DNA of 64,000 bases from Candidatus Omnitrophota bacterium (lineage in GTDB: Bacteria; Omnitrophota; Gorgyraeia; JAZDFF01). The stretch spans positions 101,073 to 165,072 of the forward strand of contig JAZDFF010000031.1 of assembly GCA_043808095.1 (NCBI GenBank), in the 5' to 3' direction. The position numbers and the translations under genes are program-made. Each line of letters starts with the position of its first letter. Position 1 is the stretch's first letter. The notes beneath the pieces were generated by a model, which saw only the letters and a list, made by a program, of their open reading frames with translations, had not been told where the DNA came from and did no database searches. Positions 1,321 to 58,626 of the stretch are shown in pieces.

Positions 1321-1410
1321 CCCTGCCGGCCCTTAGGAATTTTACATTGTAAAATTCCAAGGACTAAGTCCCGGAAATTCTTCGAATTTCTCGGGGCAGG
1401 CAGGGATTCC
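1321..1410 (+). repeat. MITE-like structured repeat, family A copy 1 (TIR CCCTGCC(G/T)GCCC … GGGGCAGGCAGGG; internal hairpins GGAATTTTACA-TTG-TAAAATTCC and GGACTAAGTCCC)
   Basis: Near-identical to 23890..23965. The derived copy at 48268..48330 shares only the terminal segments, and the reverse-orientation copy at 52975..53050 shares the central GGACTAAGTCCC and GGGAATTCTCCGAATTCC hairpins. Confidence 0.6.
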
Positions 1411-1439: not shown

Positions 1440-3077
1440 ATGTTTAATCAACCGGACTTTTTTGATCGAGCGCAAATTTTAGAAAACTTACAGAAACGTC
1501 TTTTAGGCCTAAAGGACGGATACCGTCAAAATATCGTCCTCATCGGAAATCCGTTAATGGGCAAGACGTCTATCCTAAAAAAATTCCTTTCGGATATCTG
1601 CGATAACCAGATAATTCCATTGTATCTTGAGATAGGCTCTTTAGACTTTAAGACATTTATCCTAAAATTTATAGGTTGCCTTCTTTATAATTTCTTAAAA
1701 AAGGACAGAAATGATTTAAAAGAAGACTTGGACTTTTTGATTGAAGAATCAAAGAAGATCCTACCCAAAACTACGGCCAAGATTTCACAAATACGATTGC
1801 ATTTACAGAGAGGAAGGCGCGTCGAAGTATTTTTTGAGACCCTTGGTTTGCTCGAGTCCTTAAATCAGGAAAGCGGTAAATTTAGTTTGGTGGTCTTTGA
1901 TGAATTTCATCTTTTGGAAGAACTGAATTTCAAGGACATCTTCCGTGAATTAGGAAAAAAAATTATGATCCAGAAAAAATCGATGTATTTATTCTCCAGC
2001 TCTGCTAAATACAAGGCTAAGAAAATACTCTCAAAAGAGCTTTCTCTTTTATTTGGAAATTTCGAGGTAATCGAAGTCGGCCCGTTTAATCTTGGTACAA
2101 GCCGTGAATTTATTCTTGATAAGACCGCCGGCCTAAATCTATATTCAAGTATTATAGACTTTATTATTAATTTTACAGGAGGCTGTCCTTTTTATTTAGA
2201 TCTGATCTGTTCTAAGGCCAAGCAACTCGCCTCGGTAAAACAAGATGATTTAATCTCTCAAGTAACCATAATCAATGTCTTACAAAACCTTCTTTTTAAT
2301 TCTTACGGTGAATTAAATCAACGCTACAGTAGAAGCATTACGCATTTAACTGATGAGTTTAAGGACGGTGCCGAATTAATCAGTATTTTATTATGCCTGG
2401 CCAATAGTTGTAATAAAATAAGGGAGATGAGCTTAAGCCTTCCCAGTAAAAAGAAAAACTTAATTAATAAGATAAACAGGCTACTGGAGCTTGAGATTAT
2501 AGATAAAAGAGGTACATTTTACCAGATTAATGACAGGGTCTTTGAATTTTGGTTAAGATTTGTTTATCAAGCCAAACAGGACGCCTTGGATTATCATTTT
2601 GATCTACAGGCTAGATCTTTTAGAGAGCGAATAGAAAGTTTTATTAATGATTTCATCTTGGTTTCCAAGAAAGACACCATTGAGCGGATTACGGAATTAT
2701 TCAATTTATTCAGCAACGATTCGGTGCAATTGGAAAGGCATAAATTTAAACTAAGCCAATTTAAAGAATTAAAACAATTAAGATTTGATGGTGGACAAAT
2801 CAAGAAAGGCATTGCCGGCATTACCAAAAATAGTCTATGGTTAGCAGGGATAAAAGAAGATAAAATTACGGAAAATGATGTTGCGGAATTTGCTGCTGAA
2901 TGTAAAAAATACAGGAATAAACTTCAAAAGAAAATAATTATAGCATTTAATGATATAGAGGCAAACGCTTCGCTTTTGGCAAAACAAAATAAAATTTTGA
3001 CCTGGGATATTGAGAACTTAAATTCACTTTTCGATTTATACGGCAAGCCTAGAATAGTAGCGACTTCAAAAAAATGA
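1440..3077 (+). CDS. AAA+ ATPase of the 'archaeal ATPase' type (PF01637-like, with C-terminal DUF234-like region)
   Basis: Walker A GNPLMGKTS and Walker B VVFDEFH are present. The 545-aa size and alpha-helical C-terminal domain fit this family. Confidence 0.55.
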   Translation: MFNQPDFFDRAQILENLQKRLLGLKDGYRQNIVLIGNPLMGKTSILKKFLSDICDNQIIPLYLEIGSLDFKTFILKFIGCLLYNFLKKDRNDLKEDLDFLIEESKKILPKTTAKISQIRLHLQRGRRVEVFFETLGLLESLNQESGKFSLVVFDEFHLLEELNFKDIFRELGKKIMIQKKSMYLFSSSAKYKAKKILSKELSLLFGNFEVIEVGPFNLGTSREFILDKTAGLNLYSSIIDFIINFTGGCPFYLDLICSKAKQLASVKQDDLISQVTIINVLQNLLFNSYGELNQRYSRSITHLTDEFKDGAELISILLCLANSCNKIREMSLSLPSKKKNLINKINRLLELEIIDKRGTFYQINDRVFEFWLRFVYQAKQDALDYHFDLQARSFRERIESFINDFILVSKKDTIERITELFNLFSNDSVQLERHKFKLSQFKELKQLRFDGGQIKKGIAGITKNSLWLAGIKEDKITENDVAEFAAECKKYRNKLQKKIIIAFNDIEANASLLAKQNKILTWDIENLNSLFDLYGKPRIVATSKK

Positions 3078-3556
3078 AAATAGGCGTCATATCTGATACA
3101 CATATACCTGATCGGGCAAAAGAATTACCCAGAGAAGTTCTTAATGCCTTATGCGGCGTAGAATTAATTCTTCATGCTGGTGATTTGGTCCAAATATCGG
3201 TTTTAGAGGAATTAAAAAAAATCGCTAAGGTAAAGGCGGTCTGCGGAAATATGGACTTACCCGAAGTCCGTGATGTCTTAGCACGCAAGGAAATTATCGA
3301 AGTCGGGGGATTTAAGATCGGGCTTATTCACGGTTGGGGCCCTGCTGATAAATTGCCCGAAACCATAAAAAATGAATTTTCATCCAAAATGGATATAATT
3401 GTGTTTGGTCATTCTCATAATCCGCTTAATCAGGTTATCAAGGGTACGTTATTCTTTAATCCAGGCAGCCCAACAGACAAGGCATTTTCAGTATATAATT
3501 CCTTTGGAATTATCAATATTAATGATAAAATAATTGGTGAGATAATCAAGATATAA
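3074..3556 (+). CDS. YfcE/MJ0936-family metallophosphoesterase
   Basis: MKIGVISDTHIP…HAGDLV…GHSHNP motifs of the calcineurin-like phosphodiesterase fold. There is a 4-nt overlap with the upstream gene. Confidence 0.75.
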   Translation: MKIGVISDTHIPDRAKELPREVLNALCGVELILHAGDLVQISVLEELKKIAKVKAVCGNMDLPEVRDVLARKEIIEVGGFKIGLIHGWGPADKLPETIKNEFSSKMDIIVFGHSHNPLNQVIKGTLFFNPGSPTDKAFSVYNSFGIININDKIIGEIIKI

Positions 3557-3559
3557 ATA

Positions 3560-4033
3560 ATGGAACAAATCTGGGCGCCCTGGAGAAGTGCATATATAAA
3601 AAATAAACAGCAAAAGGGGTGTTTATTTTGCCGTATAGCTAGATCCAGGCAAGATAAAAAAAATTATGTTTTATCAAGAAGTAATTTTTACTTTTCAGTC
3701 CTGAATATTCATCCTTACAATAATGGCCATGTAATGATTGCTCCTTACAGACACTTAAGGGATTTAGAAGATTTAAGTAGCGACGAAATTCTTGATCTAT
3801 TTAACCATTTTAAAAAAATACGCCTAAAATTAGATAAATGCCTAAAGCCTCAAGCTTATAATGTAGGATTAAATATCGGAAAGATTGCGGGGGCTGGAAT
3901 AGATAAGCATATACATATTCATATTGTACCTCGCTGGCTAGGAGATACAAATTTTATGCCTGTAATAAATATGGTAAAAGTAATTCCTCAGTCCCTGGAT
4001 GAACTTTATAAGAAATTAAAACATGCTCACTAA
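3560..4033 (+). CDS. HIT-family nucleotide hydrolase/transferase
   Basis: CLFCRI N-terminal motif and histidine triad HIHIHIV. Confidence 0.75.
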   Translation: MEQIWAPWRSAYIKNKQQKGCLFCRIARSRQDKKNYVLSRSNFYFSVLNIHPYNNGHVMIAPYRHLRDLEDLSSDEILDLFNHFKKIRLKLDKCLKPQAYNVGLNIGKIAGAGIDKHIHIHIVPRWLGDTNFMPVINMVKVIPQSLDELYKKLKHAH

Positions 4034-5171
4034 AATTGATGATTTAGAAAGCGAACTCCTTGCTCCGTATGCAATGAAGACCAAGTTGAGTAAAGGCAGG
4101 GTTCATCCAGAAAAGGAGCATCCCTATCGGTCTCTCTACCAAAGGGATAAGGATCGAATAATCCATTCTGCTGCATTTAGGAGGTTAGAATACAAGACTC
4201 AGGTGTTTGTTAATCATGAGGGTGATTATTATAGAACAAGGCTTACCCATACCTTAGAGGTAGCCCAGATTGCCCGGACAATTTCAAGGTCGCTAAAATT
4301 AAATGAGGACCTTACTGAATCAATTGCCCTGGCTCATGATTTAGGACACACTCCATTTGGGCACTCGGGTGAAGATGCCCTTTCTGAATTAATGAAAGAT
4401 CGTGGAGGATTTGACCATAATCGCCAAGGATTAAGGGTTGTGGATATATTAGAGGAAAGATACCTTGATTTTAACGGCCTTAATCTAAGCTGGGAGGTAA
4501 GGGAAGGGATAATAAAGCATTCCACTGACTTTGACCACACGAATATTCCGGATGATTTTAACCCCGATGAGTCTCCTTCCATGGAAACCCAAGTTGTAGA
4601 CGTTGCCGATGAAATAGCCTATGACAACCATGATCTCGATGATGGCTTAGCCTCCGGACTAATTATAGAAGAAGATTTGGATATAATACCTTTTTGGAAG
4701 GAGGCGCATATAATAGTTTCAAGAAACATGCGTAACAAAGATAGGCAATTGGAAAGATATCAGATTATTAAGTATTTAATCAATCTTCTGGTTACCGATG
4801 TTATTGAAGAATCCGAGAAGAGAATTCAGGTTTTTAATATAGATTCAATTCAAAAAGTAAGAAAACAGAAAGAAAAGGTTATTTCCTTCGGCAAGAATAT
4901 CGAGTCAAAAAGAAGGCCACTTAAGGCATTTTTGCTTACAAATCTTTATCAACATTATCGTGTGGTGCGCATGTCTGATAAGGCCAAACGTTTTATAAAA
5001 GAATTATTCAATGCATATATTGCGATGCCCAAACAATTACCAACTTCATTTCAGAAAAAAATAGAACAAGGGGATAAATACCGCGTTATCTGCGATTATA
5101 TCGCAGGGATGACCGACAGGTTTGCCTTAGATGAGTATAAAAAATTATTCTATCCTTACGAAAAGGTATAA
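4023..5171 (+). CDS. dgt: dGTP triphosphohydrolase-like HD-domain protein (Dgt family)
   Basis: HTLEVAQIAR…LAHDLGHTPFGHSGE HD motifs, at the usual length (382 aa) of the short Dgt family. Confidence 0.75.
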   Translation: MLTKIDDLESELLAPYAMKTKLSKGRVHPEKEHPYRSLYQRDKDRIIHSAAFRRLEYKTQVFVNHEGDYYRTRLTHTLEVAQIARTISRSLKLNEDLTESIALAHDLGHTPFGHSGEDALSELMKDRGGFDHNRQGLRVVDILEERYLDFNGLNLSWEVREGIIKHSTDFDHTNIPDDFNPDESPSMETQVVDVADEIAYDNHDLDDGLASGLIIEEDLDIIPFWKEAHIIVSRNMRNKDRQLERYQIIKYLINLLVTDVIEESEKRIQVFNIDSIQKVRKQKEKVISFGKNIESKRRPLKAFLLTNLYQHYRVVRMSDKAKRFIKELFNAYIAMPKQLPTSFQKKIEQGDKYRVICDYIAGMTDRFALDEYKKLFYPYEKV

Positions 5172-23608: not shown

Positions 23609-23668
23609 AAGCCCTCCTTTTAATGACCCCTGCCGTTTTGCTGCGCTTTTGCTCAGCAAAACGAAGCA

Positions 23669-23865
23669 GCAGGGGGAATTAATCCCGAAGCTTAATCCTA
23701 AAGGATAGACCTTACCCATACCTATTAGGGAAGGGTCTAACCAAAAATTATCGAACCCTCTGGAATTTCACTTCGTGAAATTCCAGAGGACTAAAGTCCC
23801 GGGAATTCTCTGAATTCCTCGGGGGAGAATTTTTGCAAGTTTTAAGCGAGGGATCTTTTAATTAG
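23669..23865 (+). repeat. MITE-like structured repeat, family B copy 1 (TIR ATCCCGAAGCTTAA … TTAAGCGAGGGAT; hairpins GGAATTTCAC-TTCG-TGAAATTCC, GGACTAAAGTCC)
   Basis: Near-identical to 35909..36045 except for a ~40-nt internal insertion. Homologous to family A with compensatory stem changes. Confidence 0.6.
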
Positions 23866-23889
23866 CACGTAACTTACGTTTGCCTCACC

Positions 23890-23965
23890 GGCCCTTAGGA
23901 ATTTTACATTGTAAAATTCCAAGGACTGAGTCCCGGAAATTCTCCGAATTTCTCGGAGCAGGTAG
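23890..23965 (+). repeat. MITE-like structured repeat, family A copy 2 (directly abutting family B copy)
   Basis: ccggcccttaggaattttacattgtaaaattccaaggactgagtcccggaaattctccgaatttctcgg matches 1321..1400 with 4 substitutions. Confidence 0.6.
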
Positions 23966-24057
23966 GTTCGCTAAGTTGCGGTTTCATTTATTCTATCACT
24001 TTAATGAATATATTCAAGAAAGAGTTGATAATTTTTTCTGATTGGGCTTTTCGTATC

Positions 24058-26399: not shown

Positions 26400-26645
26400 C
26401 CATTATTTTATCCGCCTTCGCGCAGCCGCCTTTGGCGAGCCTCGCCTTTGGCGGGAAAACCCCAGGTGTGAACCTGGGGATGAATGCGTGCAATTAGCGC
26501 TACGGCGAGATGTCGCCATTACGTGTTGAAGGCCCGCGGCTTCGCCGCGAGGCGAGCGGACCTCGACGAAGCGAAGCGTAGGCGGGTTTTTCAGGTACCA
26601 CGGCTGCTCGCCTCGCTCGACGCGAGTCGAAGCGGGTAAAGCCGT
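26400..26645. repeat. GC-rich hairpin-dense intergenic island (CCCCAGG-TGTGAA-CCTGGGG, GGCGA-GATG-TCGCC, CGCCTTTGGCG x2)
   Basis: ~245 nt of GC-rich sequence, visibly higher than the window background, made almost entirely of short perfect hairpins. It shares the CCGCCTTCGC motif with islands at 32993 and 48423. Confidence 0.5.
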
Positions 26646-28829: not shown

Positions 28830-29139
28830 TTTATATCATAAATGTTGGGGAGTGTCAATAATATTAAAATTTTTTACACCGCAAAGGCGCAAAGAAAAAT
28901 TTTACCCTTTCCCGCTCAATAATCTTTTATCTATCGGGATCCCGCTCTGCGGGAAAAGGCGTATATCAGAACATCAGGAGATCAGTAAGCAGGATATCAG
29001 AATGCCGGGAGAGTTTTGGCTTAAACCTGATACCCTGTTCTTCTGATATTCTACCCACTGATTCCCTGATATGCCGATAACCGTTTTTAGAGAGTTTTAT
29101 ATTTTGCGATTTTGCGGAACTTTTGCGATTTTCCCGCTC

Positions 29140-29200
29140 AGCTATTTAGAAGTTCGGGCGGGATCCCGCTTATTAGCGGGAAGCGGTGTAGTTATGAAGG
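29140..29200 (+). repeat. intergenic repeat family C (TTTAGAAGTTCGGGCGGGATCCCGCTTATTAGCGGGAAGCGGTGTAG)
   Basis: Repeated at 48695..48755 (+) and, diverged and inverted, at 57120..57190. It contains the GGGATCCCGC palindrome also seen at 13240 and 28930. Confidence 0.55.
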
Positions 29201-30821: not shown

Positions 30822-31175
30822 TTATTTGGTTTTCTTGGTATTTTCGATAATCGAACTCAAAATGTTTTTAATCTCATTTGCTTCTTGGATATCTCTAGCA
30901 ATTTTTTCTTTATCAATGTATTTTCCAGAAATAAGCCTCAACCAATATCTACTCTCTTTTGCCTCTCTTCTGGCTATGCCCATCTTGTTTATAAAATCCT
31001 TCTTGCTTAAAGCGCCGTCTGCTTCTTCAACATTTGCGCCTACCGAAGTCCCTGCCTCAGTAAGTTGTTTACGAATTACATCGCATTCAACTGCCCGAGG
31101 TAACATAGCCACTATTTCTAAAACCCTTTGTGCAAATTTAAAAGTCCTGTCTTTTATATCATATTCTTTGGCCAT
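30822..31175 (-). CDS. four-helix-bundle protein (TIGR02436 / 23S rRNA intervening-sequence protein family)
   Basis: 117-aa all-helical protein with the family pattern …FAQRVLEIV…LTEAGTSVGANVEEA…FINKMGIARREAKESRYWLRLI. Confidence 0.7.
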   Translation of the reverse strand: MAKEYDIKDRTFKFAQRVLEIVAMLPRAVECDVIRKQLTEAGTSVGANVEEADGALSKKDFINKMGIARREAKESRYWLRLISGKYIDKEKIARDIQEANEIKNILSSIIENTKKTK

Positions 31176-32975: not shown

Positions 32976-33095
32976 GGGAACGCGAATTCTCGCTAATCCC
33001 CGCCTTCGCTAAAGCTTCGGCGGGCAGGCGCAAAGACGCAAAAAAAAATCCAAAAAATCAAAAATATTTTGGAACCGTCAGCTGGATTAGTGAAA

Positions 33096-35908: not shown

Positions 35909-36045
35909 GCGAATTAATCCCGAAGCTTAAGTAAAAATTATCGAACCCTCTGGAATTTCACGAAGTGAAATTCCGAGGACTAAAGTCCCGGGAATTCTCT
36001 GAATTCCTCGGGGGAGAATTCTTACTTGTTTAAGCGAGGGATCTA
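35909..36045 (+). repeat. MITE-like structured repeat, family B copy 2
   Basis: gaattaatcccgaagcttaagtaaaaattatcgaaccctctggaatttcacgaagtgaaattccgaggactaaagtcccgggaattctctgaattcctcgggggagaatt…ttaagcgagggatc. Confidence 0.6.
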
Positions 36046-36063
36046 CGGTTAACTCGTCCCCAT

Positions 36064-36882
36064 TTACCATGTTCTATCTTTTTCTTCTTGGCTGATAAAC
36101 TTCCGTAATTTTTTTAATGCATTTTCTTCTATTTGGCGGACACGCTCCCGGGAGATTTCCATATCCTTGGCAACCTCGGCAAGGGTGTAACTCCTTCCGT
36201 TAGTGAGGCCGAATCTTAAATCCAGGACCTGTTTTTCTTTTTCGTTCATCTGGCCCAAGAGATTTGAGACACTATCACGGTTTATAAACTGTGAAATTTC
36301 GTCTTCTGAGGAACCGCTAGACTCATCCTTAATCATATCCATTACCTGGCCGTCTCCGTCTTCGCCGATAGGCGCATCAAGAGAGGCGGTCTTGGTAATC
36401 CATTTTCTGATGTCTCTAACTTTATCAATCGGTAAATGCATTTTTCTGGCAATATCTGAAGTCGAAGGTGCGCGTTTCAATTTTTGGCTCAGCGCCTCTT
36501 TGGTCTTATTCCATTTTGAAATTAGTTCGCTCATATAGACAGGCACACGCACGGTCTTAGACTGTTCAAAAAGTGCGCGGGTAATACTCTGCCTTATCCA
36601 CCAGGCGGCGTAGGTAGAAAACCTGTAGCCTTTTTTGGGATTAAATTTGTCTACTGCCTTCATTAAGCCGAGGTTGCCCTCTTCAATTAAATCTATTAAG
36701 GGGAGGCCGAAATTACCGTAACGTTTGGCAATATTGATGACCAGGCGCAGGTTGGAACGAATCATCTTAAGGCGCGCTTCCTGATCGCCCTTTTTGATGA
36801 GCCTGCTCAGGTCTATTTCATCCTTGGCAGTTAAAAGAGGGATATTTTTGATTTCCTTCAGATATATCTTTATGGCTTCCAT
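36064..36882 (-). CDS. RNA polymerase sigma factor, sigma-70 family (RpoD/RpoS-like group)
   Basis: Region 2 FSTYAAWWIRQSITRAL, region 3, and region 4 YTLAEVAKDMEISRERVRQIEENALKKLR. Confidence 0.8.
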   Translation of the reverse strand: MEAIKIYLKEIKNIPLLTAKDEIDLSRLIKKGDQEARLKMIRSNLRLVINIAKRYGNFGLPLIDLIEEGNLGLMKAVDKFNPKKGYRFSTYAAWWIRQSITRALFEQSKTVRVPVYMSELISKWNKTKEALSQKLKRAPSTSDIARKMHLPIDKVRDIRKWITKTASLDAPIGEDGDGQVMDMIKDESSGSSEDEISQFINRDSVSNLLGQMNEKEKQVLDLRFGLTNGRSYTLAEVAKDMEISRERVRQIEENALKKLRKFISQEEKDRTW

Positions 36883-48255: not shown

Positions 48256-48267
48256 TTTTTTGACACC

Positions 48268-48760
48268 CTGCCTGCCTGCCCTTAGGAATTTTACAAATTG
48301 CAGATGGCGAATTTCTCGGGGCAGGCAGGCGTAAAAACGCCCGCCTACGCTAAAGCTTCGGCGGGCAGGCGCTAAAATGCAAAAAAAATCCCTGCCTGAC
48401 GGCAGGCAGGCGCAAAAACGCAAAATCATTTACCCGCCTTCGCAGAAAGCTACGGGCGTAAGCCCGTAGATGAATGCGTACAGTGGTGGGTATCCGCCAA
48501 AGATTTGTGGCGGATATGCTTCGGCGGGTTTCGCCGAAGCATGTGAAGAAGCTACAGCCGTAAGGCTTTAGAGCTTCACTTAGAATTTTTGCGCCTTTGC
48601 GGTAATTTTACGTCCTTCGATAAATGCTTCAACTTCGCTCAGCACTATTCGACGCATCGTGAGCTTGCCGAACGGCTCAGGACACATTTCCCGCTTTGCC
48701 ATTTAGAAGTTCGGGCGGGGATCCCTCTTATTAGCGGAAAGCGGTATAGGCTGGTTGGTT
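48268..48760. repeat. composite GC-rich intergenic repeat region: truncated family-A MITE (48268..48330), mini-palindrome CCCTGCCTGACGGCAGGCAGG (48389..48410), CCGCCA-N8-TGGCGG palindrome (48485..48504), family C repeat (48695..48755)
   Basis: Each sub-element matches copies elsewhere in the window (1321, 32993, 32931, 29140). Confidence 0.55.
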
Positions 48761-49811: not shown

Positions 49812-49833
49812 CCCTGCCTGCCGGCAGGCAGGG
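49812..49833. repeat. 22-nt perfect palindrome CCCTGCCTGCCGGCAGGCAGGG = family-A terminal inverted repeats joined with no internal sequence
   Basis: It is identical to the two TIR halves at 1321 and 1395. Similar minimal copies are at 48389 and 53072. Confidence 0.5.
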
Positions 49834-50025
49834 ATACTGGTATCGAAACCGGTCTTCGATATTCGGGGCTCGATTTTTTTCATCATGTCTTCAAGCTTCC
49901 AGATTCCAGCCTCGATACAAGCATTCATAACTTAAAACCAGATTCAAGCATCTTTTGTCATCGGGGTATACGAAGTGTTGACATTATTGACATTAGGCGA
50001 ATTATATGTTAAAACTAAGCCACAT

Positions 50026-52974: not shown

Positions 52975-53050
52975 CACGAATGGACACTGATTACCCCGTG
53001 GAATTCGGAGAATTCCCGGGACTTAGTCCCTGAAATTGCAATTAAAATTG
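52975..53050 (-). repeat. MITE-like structured repeat, family A/B in reverse orientation (hairpin variant GAAATTGCAATT-TTAA-TTGCAATTTC)
   Basis: The reverse complement reads …ggaaattgcaattttaattgcaatttcagggactaagtcccgggaattctccgaattcc…. Confidence 0.5.
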
Positions 53051-53159
53051 CAATTTCTAGGGGCACGCATCTGCCTGGCCGGCAGGCAGGAATAAACACG
53101 AATTTGTCTTCGGAATTTATTCGTGAGAATTCGTGTATCAGTTATGTAAAGATTAATAA

Positions 53160-57256: not shown

Positions 57257-58626
57257 TTAGATTTTTTTAATCCCTAATTCTTTTAATTGTTTATCACTGA
57301 CCGTAGATGGCGCATCAGTTAAAGGACAACTCGCCTTCTGGGTTTTGGGAAAGGCGATCACCTCTCGAATCGAATTTACGCCGCTTAAGATTGCAATCAA
57401 TCTGTCTAAACCAAAGGCGATTCCGCCGTGAGGCGGGGCGCCGTATTTAAATGCCTCTAACAAAAAACCAAATCTTTCTTTTGACTCTTCTTGACCCAGG
57501 CCGATTGTCTTAAATATTTTCTCCTGGATTTTACTATCGTGAATTCTGATCGAGCCGCTTGCAATCTCGTTTCCGTTTAAGACTAAATCATAAGACCTTG
57601 ACCTTACTTTTCCGGGGTCGGTTTCAAGAAACGGAAAGTCATCGCTATTAGGTGCAGTAAAAGGATGATGTTCGCTCTCCCAGCGCTTCTCTTCTTCGTT
57701 GTATTTAAAAAGAGGGAATTCATTTACCCAAACAAAATAAAATTCTGCCTTTCCTACATTAGGCTTGTCGCTGTTATATTTTCCATCGCCTCTTTGTAGG
57801 ATATCCTCTTAAAAGGAATTTTAAGCTCGATATCTTTTGCAATCCTGAATATATTATACATCAATTTTTCAGAAATTCGAAAAATATCTTCCTCATCCAC
57901 AAACGACATCTCTAAATCAAGTTGAGTAAACTCTGGCTGGCGGTCAGCGCGCAGGTCTTCATCGCGAAAACACTTGGCAATCTGAAAATATTTATCCAGG
58001 CCCGCTACCATAAGTATCTGCTTAAAAAGCTGGGGCGATTGGGGAAGGGCAAAAAACTTTCCCGGGCTAAGCCTTGAAGGAACAAGATAGTCTCTTGCGC
58101 CTTCAGGCGTAGATTTAGTGAGAATTGGGGTTTCGACCTCAACAAATCCCTCTTCATTCAAGGTCTGGCGTATTGCCTTGTATATGTTATGGCGCAACAG
58201 GAGATTATTTAACATCCTAGGTCTTCTCAGATCCAGGTAGCGATAGGCGAGCCTGACTTCTTCAGAGACGTCGCTGTCGTCTTCTATTTCAAAAGGCAGG
58301 TCCTGACAAGGATTTAATACGGACAGCTCTTGGGCGTAAAGCTCAATTTTTCCGGTAGGGATCTTCGGATTTTCGGTTTTTTCAGGCCGGCTCTCGATTT
58401 TTCCTTTTACTAAGATGACGTATTCATTGCGTAATTCGTTTGCCTTTTCATGAATTGAATGCGACTCTTTTGGATTGAAAACTACTTGAATTAAACCAGT
58501 CCTATCCCTTAGATCAATAAAAATAAGTTTTCCGTGGTCGCGCCTGCGATGGACCCAACCCACTAAGACAACATTCTGACCGATATCTTTTTCTCTTATT
58601 TCTGCGCAATAATGCGTTCTCGTCAT
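57257..58626 (-). pseudogene. aspS: aspartyl-tRNA synthetase (short, archaeal/type-2 length ~455 aa) interrupted by a single 1-nt frameshift near 57775..57783
   Basis: The first 290 aa (anticodon-binding OB plus the class-II motif region) end at …ISYKEAMEN. Re-reading 57257..57776 in the adjacent frame gives a continuous …[25 protein letters not shown]…[25 protein letters not shown]… C-terminus ending at the 57257 stop. The shift lies in an A/T-rich run. Confidence 0.7.

Follow-up and report, generated by a model that had tools for sequence, protein, structure and literature searches.

The systems closest to the repeat described here are the REP (repetitive extragenic palindromic) sequences and their BIME and REPIN arrangements, found with the RAYT transposase (TnpA-REP) in Escherichia coli and Pseudomonas (Quentin et al. 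2018, PMC6006769; Bertels and Rainey 2011, PMC3116915). REPs are bulged, G/C-footed hairpins of 20-40 nt that lie outside genes, often as inverted pairs, and depend for their movement on a single-copy Y1 transposase acting in trans (PMC6006769); they are defined by a GT[AG]G (or CGTC) tag at the foot of the hairpin and by a RAYT flanked by the same repeats (PMC6006769 section 12; PMC3733652). We analysed a repeat, called the core hereafter, in a 64,000-nt stretch of a metagenome-assembled genome labelled Candidatus Omnitrophota (contig JAZDFF010000031.1; "the window" always means this whole stretch), and followed it through genome and metagenome collections. We propose, with a probability of roughly 0.6, that the core is a REP/BIME-like non-autonomous mobile DNA element whose structure acts on DNA, most likely as folded single strands.

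The likeness to REPs lies in the build and in the location: each half of the core is a bulged, G/C-footed hairpin of ~30 nt, the core has no open reading frame (ORF), it is extragenic among housekeeping genes, and hundreds of such extragenic copies are implied. Because its two hairpins are mirror images, the core resembles an inverted REP pair, i.e. a BIME- or REPIN-like doublet. On the other hand it has neither GTAG nor CGTC—one finds 5' of the feet either nAGT, on the spacer side, or variable flanks—and no RAYT gene is flanked by cores in the window or in ~1.5 Mb of core-bearing loci. Unlike REPs also, one of its hairpins (hairpin 1) varies while the other (hairpin 3) is fixed, and other repeats serve as insertion sites for the core. 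Vertical inheritance is described as the predominant mode for REPIN-RAYT systems, whereas the core is near-identical across phyla. As compared with a REPIN, its hairpins are mirror images with matching feet and cannot pair with one another like REPIN arms, because their upper stems differ. The cyanobacterial REPs of subclass 2.8 (GTAGTGAGGACTTTAGTCCTC; GTAGTGAGGACTT[CT]AGTCCTC; PMC6006769 Table S1) have 14 nt in common with the centre of the core.

The core is laid out as CCC-(hairpin 1)-ACTnAGT-(hairpin 3)-GGGG. Each hairpin is ~30 nt long and stands on a 4-bp G/C foot; it has a single bulged base, a loop of 3-5 nt and an A/T-rich stem based on GGAAT/ATTCC (four such half-sites per core). The bulge is on the 5' arm in hairpin 1 and on the 3' arm in hairpin 3, hence the mirror images, and the covariance model R1, built from 70 non-identical copies, scores the reverse strand of cores at 42-56 bits. 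Both the sequence and the length of hairpin 1 are free to change; hairpin 3 is almost invariant (GGRAATTC nnn GAATTYC, where R and Y covary). The termini, CCCyyyGGAAT and ATTCCnnGGGG, are imperfect inverted repeats of 11-12 bp. The conserved unit is this core of 62-78 nt, from CCC to GGGG, and the sequences outside it differ by family.

A model that had seen the DNA letters alone (the sequence-only reading) had remarked that hairpin 1 differs among copies by paired substitutions preserving the stem (TTTTACA/TGTAAAA, TTTCAC/GTGAAA and TTGCAATT/AATTGCAA). These are real, and form part of a covariation found in 70 genome copies and again in 99 independent metagenome copies. For the genome copies, the proposed pairs are standard in 98.9% of cases, ten pairs covary and double-change cells number 158, versus 49 in shuffles; the covariation score drops from 0.248 to 0.134 or less when the 3' partners are slid by 1-3 columns, and the pairing collapses too. 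The metagenome copies give 98.8% of paired positions, 188 double changes versus 52, 13 covarying pairs and a score of 0.256 versus 0.142 or less after sliding. One of the alignments used (A3) was fitted to R1 and is thereby biased towards the modelled structure. Besides, the two bases after CCC covary with the two bases before GGAC, and the mirror-image pair around hairpin 3 covaries likewise in copies found free of pattern bias.

The invariant blocks CCC, GG(AC), (GT)CC and GGG admit two pairings. In the first, an outer stem and a central GGAC/GTCC hairpin produce a three-hairpin fold, i.e. a perfect four-way junction; in the second, 4-bp feet lengthen hairpins 1 and 3 and leave ACTnAGT unpaired. 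The RNAalifold consensus is the two-hairpin fold, which DNA-parameter folding also favours in 69 of the 70 cores (median margin ~5 kcal/mol), and which is the minimum-energy fold of the window copies A1 and B2 (listed below) with their surroundings included. The three-hairpin architecture with a central GGACTAAGTCCC hairpin, as first proposed, is thus compatible with the sequence but disfavoured by both the consensus and the DNA-parameter folds: the sequence of this centre is conserved, its stem gets no support from covariation, and since it never varies, covariation does not exclude it either. The best-supported anatomy is that of two mirror-image bulged hairpins joined by a conserved, palindromic and unpaired spacer.

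When R1 was run over the whole window with filters off, exactly five full cores (74-83 bits) and one weak remnant came out, everything else being noise below 10 bits. They occupy all six places where the sequence-only reading had listed a repeat; the extents of its two B copies had to be corrected, and the unit that is conserved is the core alone. Simple repeat finding also recovers A1/A2, B1/B2 and the inverted copy (C). Most copies are enclosed in an outer palindrome, for which we use the word carrier; the copies, and the palindromes of the A type found without a core inside, are as follows.

1321-1405, plus strand: copy A1, core at 1330-1396 (82.6 bits), with a short G/C palindrome around it whose arms are CCCTGCCGG (1321-1329) and CAGGCAGGG (1397-1405).
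23676-23864, plus strand: copy B1, core at 23756-23824 (73.8 bits) in the apical loop of a long B carrier hairpin, laid out as GAATTAATCCCGAAGCTTAA ... AAAAATTATCGAA(core)GAGAATTTTTG ... TTAAGCGAGGGATCT..TTAATT.
23884-23966, plus strand: copy A2, core at 23892-23958 (75.5 bits), in a decayed A-type palindrome, CTCACCGG / CAGGTAGG.
35911-36054, plus strand: copy B2, core at 35946-36013 (79.9 bits) in the apical loop of a B carrier.
48266-48331, plus strand: degenerate copy, remnant at 48279-48321 (14.8 bits, E = 0.046) with A-type arms around it.
48388-48410, no strand assigned: second core-free variant of the A-type palindrome, ATCCCTGCCTGACGGCAGGCAGG.
49813-49835, no strand assigned: empty A-type carrier, CCTGCCTGCCGG^CAGGCAGGGAT, no core.
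52994-53063, minus strand: copy C, a core (78.9 bits) with a third hairpin-1 sequence and no enclosing carrier.
53069-53090, no strand assigned: variant of the A-type palindrome, beside copy C and not around it.

A1 and A2 are 95% identical over an overlap of 79 nt. The degenerate copy keeps the first 17 and the last 13 bases of a core, with 13 unrelated nt (AATTGCAGATGGC) in between, and copy C adjoins a CTGCCTGGCCGGCAGGCAG palindrome. The 5' arm of B1 carries an additional 47-nt hairpin insert (23696-23742, TCCTAAAGGATAGACCTTACCC...GGGAAGGGTCTAACC) that B2 does not have; its TCCTAAAGGA motif also occurs within cores of two Planctomycetia contigs (L014, ~3990-4020, and L060, ~60-110; L numbers designate the loci recovered in our scans), and such inserts may be a third tier of nested mini-elements.

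A and B had been taken for two families. They are one core inside two unrelated carriers, each of which also occurs without it (window 49813-49835 for the A type; L010, L042 and L064 for B). The outer inverted repeats on which mobility had been argued are present—CCCTGCCGG/CAGGCAGGG for A, (GAATTA)ATCCCGAAGCTTAA/TTAAGCGAGGGAT(CT..TTAAyT) for B—but, because both palindromes exist core-free, these "terminal inverted repeats" belong mostly to the carriers and are not the ends of the mobile unit. Those of A are a 22-nt palindrome. The palindrome of 49813-49835 encloses a core in L018, L070 and L077, and a shortened or variant form of it does so in A1 and in the degenerate copy; in L089 the core stands on the opposite side of the central CCGG loop, which means that insertion into this palindrome took place at two different positions.

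The B carrier, a hairpin of ~90 nt (GAATTRAYCCCG ... AAAATTRTCGAA^GAGAAYTTT ... CGGGGY), is a conserved palindromic repeat in its own right: the ends (GAATTRAYCCCG / CGGGGY) and the apical loop (AAAATTRTCGAAGAGAAYTTT) are fixed, and the stems covary. It was found empty in the seven loci below, and filled, exactly at the position marked ^, in the same genomes (L010 6074, L042 3427, L066).

Empty B carriers: L010 5288-5370; L042, minus strand, ~4165-4250 and ~3520-3605 (two subfamilies); L064; L032 4205; L101; L085 7873; L031.

The second subfamily, empty in L042, is filled at L042 4075 and in L055. The stems of the two subfamilies are quite different, and the cores they hold differ by one inserted base at most.

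Cores also enter one another. L076 has a 64-nt core placed between the GGTC and the CCGG of another; once the inner core is subtracted, what remains is a 61-nt sequence with 100% identity to the core of L039, a locus of the same genome. The hairpin-1 loop of a core in L092 accommodates a second core of 62 nt, without which the outer one is a normal core of 63 nt, and the core inserted in L065 has two identical copies elsewhere in that genome. Filled and empty sites are also seen at homologous places: the 5' leader of an HNH-AP2 gene has a core in L159 and lacks it in L233, and the intergenic region between an isochorismatase and a WYL-regulator gene has one in L099 and none in L110, where the flanking proteins are 88-92% identical and the spacer is too diverged for placing breakpoints. 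The target-site duplication amounts to zero bases in L076, L092, the B-carrier pairs, the A-type palindrome pairs and L159 versus L233. The distribution is patchy: 52 kb of DNA from the relatives of a core-bearing genome contained no core. These empty and filled sites and clean nested insertions bear out the mobility that had been proposed, and with the compensatory changes that keep its stems the core is indeed a structured, multi-copy, MITE-like family (MITE, miniature inverted-repeat transposable element).

No motif is shared by the bases flanking the core, the left flanks being as diverse as TCGAA, GCCGG, CCTG, CTTGA, GGTC or T-rich runs. What recurs at these sites is a shape: when the two flanks are joined, 45% of the copies display at least 12 cross pairs, versus 23% of the controls made of mismatched flanks (p = 7e-5), and the mean energy is -9.2 versus -5.3 kcal/mol. 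Since joined flanks pair across the junction far above controls, about half of the copies sit at the apex of a palindrome; the tips used are those of short G/C palindromes, of the ~90-nt B carrier and of hairpin 1 of other cores. Many of the remaining copies lie in T-rich stretches with a 7-nt period.

Two further observations concern these sites. The 7-nt units flanking palindrome-free cores are for example TTTTGAT, GCGATTG, CAAAATG and TTCTGTC, with CGnnnnn repeated 12 times in L107 (other loci with such flanks are L001, L043, L046, L062, L076, L083, L099 and L104). "Hollowed" cores, of which the first 13-17 and last 13-14 bases are left, were met in two unrelated genomes, in the window at 48279-48321 and in L065 at 146-236; both have ATTGCAGAT at the join, which in L065 is the precise insertion site of a full core.

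The small dispersed repeats (SDRs) of Nostoc, reportedly described by Elhai and colleagues in 2008, are said to be repeats of 21-27 nt, confined to cyanobacteria and nested in one another and in other repeats. IS1397 and ISKpn1 insert into REP loops, IS1397 being a full IS3-family insertion sequence (IS) that makes duplications. The core shares with the former its very small size and its nesting, and with the latter its insertion into loops of palindromic repeats, likenesses that we take as leads only. It also resembles the attC sites of integrons in being an imperfect palindrome in their range of 60-140 nt, foldable as a single strand with extrahelical bases, and in forming an array of four copies in L107; it differs from them by the lack of RYYYAAC/GTTRRRY boxes and by its CCC/GGGG ends, and in the window the copies are dispersed among housekeeping genes, not grouped in cassette arrays, and there is no integrase.

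The pairs themselves indicate on which molecule selection acts. Among 1785 scored pairs, 1757 are Watson-Crick, 9 G-U, 13 A-C and 6 of other kinds. Real RNA families accept G-U far more than A-C, and an A-C pair is a G-U on the opposite strand; both are equally rare here, as would be expected if selection bears on complementarity on both strands, i.e. on DNA. Relative to tandem flanking genes, called in the fetched loci by a longest-ORF heuristic, 20 cores are co-oriented and 30 anti-oriented, with 8 more in convergent and 5 in divergent contexts; non-B cores are split ~16 to 14, and cores have no preferred distance from start or stop codons. In the window, gene strand, GC skew and AT skew flip sign near 22 kb, which could mark a replication terminus or reflect coding-strand composition; core orientation follows neither gene strand nor GC skew.

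The core is not confined to the Omnitrophota. A scan of one genome per species with the pattern GGACTN{2,3}GTCCCGGRAATTC returned at least 106 loci (L001-L106), of which ~20 are chance matches inside unrelated high-G+C genes and the others hold the whole element: ~85 cores in the first 100 loci and 8 more in L101-L106. By record titles they come from at least 49 assemblies, many of which contribute several contigs. Among the matches listed, 24 assemblies are labelled Omnitrophota (including Candidatus Saelkia), 13 are unclassified, 6 are Planctomycetota (Sedimentisphaerales, Phycisphaerales, "Planctomycetia") and 2 Elusimicrobia, with one each for Ratteibacteria, Auribacterota, Thermodesulfovibrionia and Spirochaetes. 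A metagenome scan (pattern GTCCCGGRAATTCNNNGAATTYC) gave at least 120 loci, and the first 100 of 120, once fetched, yielded 99 cores of 66-89 bits. Near-identical cores thus occur in different phyla, and several copies are at contig ends. The pattern matched two viral contigs, L107, which has cores, and L108, which has none; L107 (1-3480) is the same region as L005, a contig of a Planctomycetota metagenome-assembled genome, and carries four core copies in one orientation between small genes. A short form of the core, with hairpin 3 replaced by CCGGCTTCCGG, is also seen in L107. A BLAST search of B2 against plasmid and phage collections gave no match.

The core thus inserts as a discrete unit, with exact CCC...GGGG ends, no duplication and no fixed target, and it has spread across the Omnitrophota and into several neighbouring phyla. 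To account for these data we suppose that a gene elsewhere in the genome encodes a protein that would recognise the ACTnAGT spacer and both bulged hairpins, and would cut and rejoin single-stranded DNA. The type of this enzyme is a guess: it might be an HUH/Y1-type or another structure-specific nuclease.

The sequence-only reading had named an IS200/IS605 TnpA as an example of a possible enzyme, a link that is not supported. The IS608 hairpin is sub-terminal and bulged, on a 4-bp G/C foot resembling that of the core. Like IS200/IS605 elements and their miniature derivatives (PATEs), the core makes no target duplication and its likely substrate is a folded single strand (TnpA-IS200 mechanism, PMC6006769). 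However, its left and right hairpins are mirror images and not two hairpins of the same orientation on one strand, no constant tetra- or pentanucleotide precedes it on the 5' side, and no TnpA or TnpB is associated with it; the window has no such gene, and the mirror-image hairpins and the lack of a fixed target sequence further weaken this link.

Several points weigh against a mobile element acting on DNA, the first of which is the enzyme. Pfam finds no transposase, recombinase, integrase or HUH protein among the 57 sizeable ORFs of the window, where phmmer with Y1 and HNH-AP2 seeds has no match either. Outside the window, in the ~1.5 Mb of core-bearing loci covered by these searches, no orphan half-core (left or right end) borders an ORF and no longer element combines core ends with an ORF; all-against-all clustering of the ORFs near cores gave mostly large housekeeping families and no recurrent transposase-like family. 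Jackhmmer over all loci recovered two Y1_Tnp genes, at L066 4982-5971 (with a DnaA C-terminal domain, DnaA_C) and L134 401-1101. Both are bracketed not by cores but by inverted repeats of their own, of the GGGG[AT][CG]A[CG] type (GGGGTCAAGTC... and GGGGACAGCTACC...), and were rejected as the cognate enzyme on account of these differing termini; Y1 genes bordered in this way match the "TIRYT" subclass 2.1 of Quentin et al. 2018 (PMC6006769). A second candidate, an endonuclease of ~200 residues with HNH_3 and AP2 domains, is encoded beside cores in 11 loci, in three of which the core precedes the start codon by 30-43 nt; this family is large (2711 clusters), four homologues chosen independently of cores have no core within 3 kb, and these core-free homologues led us to reject it as a part of the element.

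The other points concern the observations themselves. The invariance of the spacer and of hairpin 3 is inflated, because the scans used fixed words taken from those parts; in ~20 copies found by the model alone, free of this bias, both vary, with compensation in hairpin 3. The taxon labels are those of the depositors, and were checked for one contig, L099, whose PurF has by protein similarity only Sedimentisphaerales or Planctomycetota as named relatives. Replication slippage that loses a hairpin precisely could create some of the "empty" sites without true excision. For the copies of the window itself no insertion polymorphism is shown, because the collections hold no close relative (the RpoD of the nearest one is only 76% identical). 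Lastly, the B carrier, filled or empty, is anti-oriented to flanking genes in 13 of 15 cases and co-oriented in 2 (p = 0.007; several cases share a locus), a wider hand count giving 16 versus 4, and this bias could reflect either an RNA-level role of that composite or a strand-specific insertion.

Side observations were made around both candidate genes. In L134, at 1941-2260, solo Y1 terminal repeats (GGGACAGCwACCGTTTAAATCCGCAATCTACAA) abut two degenerate cores, the sole physical link between an HUH element and a core that we saw. Many HNH_3+AP2 genes share a hairpin leader (GGATCCCCkrCTGC ... CTCGGGGATC) 20-70 nt before the start codon, whose ends resemble those of the B carrier (L189, L218, L237, L165, L240, L185).

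A bolder version of the mobile-element reading would make the core a previously undescribed class of ultra-small (~63 nt) mobile DNA, which enters the apical loops of hairpin repeats without duplication, crosses phyla and depends on a type of enzyme unlinked to REPs or MITEs. We consider this conceivable but doubtful; it is suggested by the lack of a GTAG tag, of an adjoining RAYT and of a parent IS. The alternative pairing described above (CCC/GGG with GGAC/GTCC, versus the extended hairpins) might then serve as a switch between the two-hairpin form and the perfect four-way junction, and the junction could be the intermediate that is recognised. In the literature on Omnitrophota repeats, palindromes, MITEs and REP/RAYT we found no description of the core.

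Should the core be kept by the host instead, the core and its carriers would be cruciform binding sites for a nucleoid or topology protein, spread and made uniform by recombination or gene conversion and not by a dedicated transposase. Gyrase and IHF have been proposed as binders at BIMEs. That complementarity is Watson-Crick only and equal on both strands agrees with such sites, as do the GGAAT/ATTCC half-sites present four times per core, the strictly intergenic position of the copies among housekeeping genes and the failure to find a transposase. Yet recombination alone can hardly explain insertions that are exact, leave no duplication and occur in many unrelated places, other copies included; the distribution is patchy, with no core in the 52 kb of relatives, and near-identical cores across phyla suggest the horizontal spread of a selfish unit; we therefore hold this explanation to be unlikely.

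A structured RNA was among the options first proposed: the core, or the B composite, would be transcribed within 5' or 3' untranslated regions and work there as a cluster of RNA hairpins, for example to stabilise an mRNA, to mark a processing site, to assist a terminator or to bind a protein, and its multiplication would be secondary. The fold is strongly stabilised (z-scores of -4.3 for B2 and -7.5 for A1) with heavy covariation, the orientation bias of the B carriers goes in this direction, several of them beginning within ~10 nt of a stop codon, and REP elements, the nearest analogue, have RNA-level effects—this is established knowledge, and a 2026 preprint argues likewise. Nevertheless Rfam 15 at gathering score finds two tRNAs and nothing else in the window, and nothing meaningful in 23640-23990 on either strand with E up to 10; cores overall are not oriented with transcription (20 versus 30), and G-U, at 0.5% of pairs, is no commoner than A-C. 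Conserved bases inside the stems, loops of just 3 nt and the precise nesting of cores in cores and in other repeats, a DNA-level behavior, are further arguments against it, so that an RNA function looks quite improbable as the reason for the repeat.

Correia/NEMIS, ERIC, RUP and Nezha are small palindromic intergenic MITEs with duplications (TA for Correia), an identifiable IS family and narrow hosts. The core is MITE-like in being small, palindromic, intergenic, multi-copy and non-coding, with terminal inverted repeats; unlike them it has no duplication, no parent IS and a multi-phylum range. That it is a conventional MITE derived from a DDE-type IS, with CCCyyyGGAAT and ATTCCnnGGGG as terminal repeats bound by the parent transposase, is very improbable: imperfect terminal repeats of 11-12 bp, a length under 100 bp, no ORF and many intergenic copies would fit, but every empty/filled or nested pair examined has zero target-site duplication, in the ~1.5 Mb of flanks we found no longer element that combines these ends with an ORF, and the spacer and stems are too conserved for an interior derived by deletion. 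We file the core as a variant of the REP/BIME/MITE kind and as a member of none of these families.

In the window all copies are intergenic between co-directional genes, one of them beside a tRNA gene, as had been noted. A1 has tRNA-Gly(CCC) (1200-1270) on one side and an ORF (1440-3077) on the other; B1 and A2 lie together between an ACT-domain gene and a PAS-GAF-HD gene; B2, between a LacI-type gene and a sigma-70 gene (36064-36882, minus strand), begins 10 nt from the stop codon of the latter. The degenerate copy is between an MFS gene and panE, and copy C between recO and ybeY, upstream of the likely true start of recO. The window, with a G+C content of 38-45%, encodes ThiC, LexA, a DinB-type polymerase, sigma-70, PPDK, a ProRS or ThrS-type synthetase, PanB, PanE, PolX, a Hel308-like helicase, RecO, YbeY, PhoH, HisRS and DnaE, and few of its ORFs have no Pfam match.

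Other repeats share this DNA. The sequence CCCGCCTwCGCTAAAGCTTCGGCGGGCAGGCGCwAAranGCAAAAAAAA is at 32999-33047, 48340-48388 and 48400-48425; it is 92% identical between 33.0 and 48.3 kb, partly reiterated, and adjoins the degenerate core at 48.3 kb. A 62-nt repeat with two G/C hairpins (TTTCCCGC...GGGCGGGATCCCGC..TTATTAGCGGGAAGCGGTGTAG), ~91% identical between 29130-29191 and 48687-48749, stands in both places just 3' of the stop codon of a minus-strand gene (a GH57 gene and panE). The hairpin found at 26455-26492 and 48445-48482 displays compensatory stem changes (CCCCAGGTGTGAACCTGGGG versus CTACGGGCGTAAGCCCGTAG) followed by a conserved GATGAATGCGTrCA; its GGGGATGAATGCGyG motif precedes B carriers in L007 and L064, and it seems to be one more module in this ecosystem of repeats. 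Two genes also deserve mention: the aspartyl/asparaginyl-tRNA synthetase ORF 57754-58626 (minus strand) has 290 residues that cover positions 1-168 of the 308-position class II core profile, and this gene may be split or frameshifted around 57.1-57.7 kb; ORF 30822-31175 (minus strand) belongs to the "23S rRNA intervening sequence protein" family (PF05635) and lies among carbohydrate and outer-membrane genes, with no rRNA nearby.

As the unit and its targets are sharply defined, and empty and filled sites are one event apart, movement in the absence of an adjacent transposase becomes testable. The nesting of cores in carriers, and of these among intergenic hairpins, records successive invasions and is a possible marker of strain history. 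Assemblies are concerned as well: contigs often break at these repeats, which the covariance model could flag. If the core is the mobile DNA element that we propose, widely spread miniature mobile palindromes would be added to the biology of Omnitrophota, Sedimentisphaerales, Elusimicrobia, Ratteibacteria and Auribacterota, phyla and groups that are known almost only from metagenomes.

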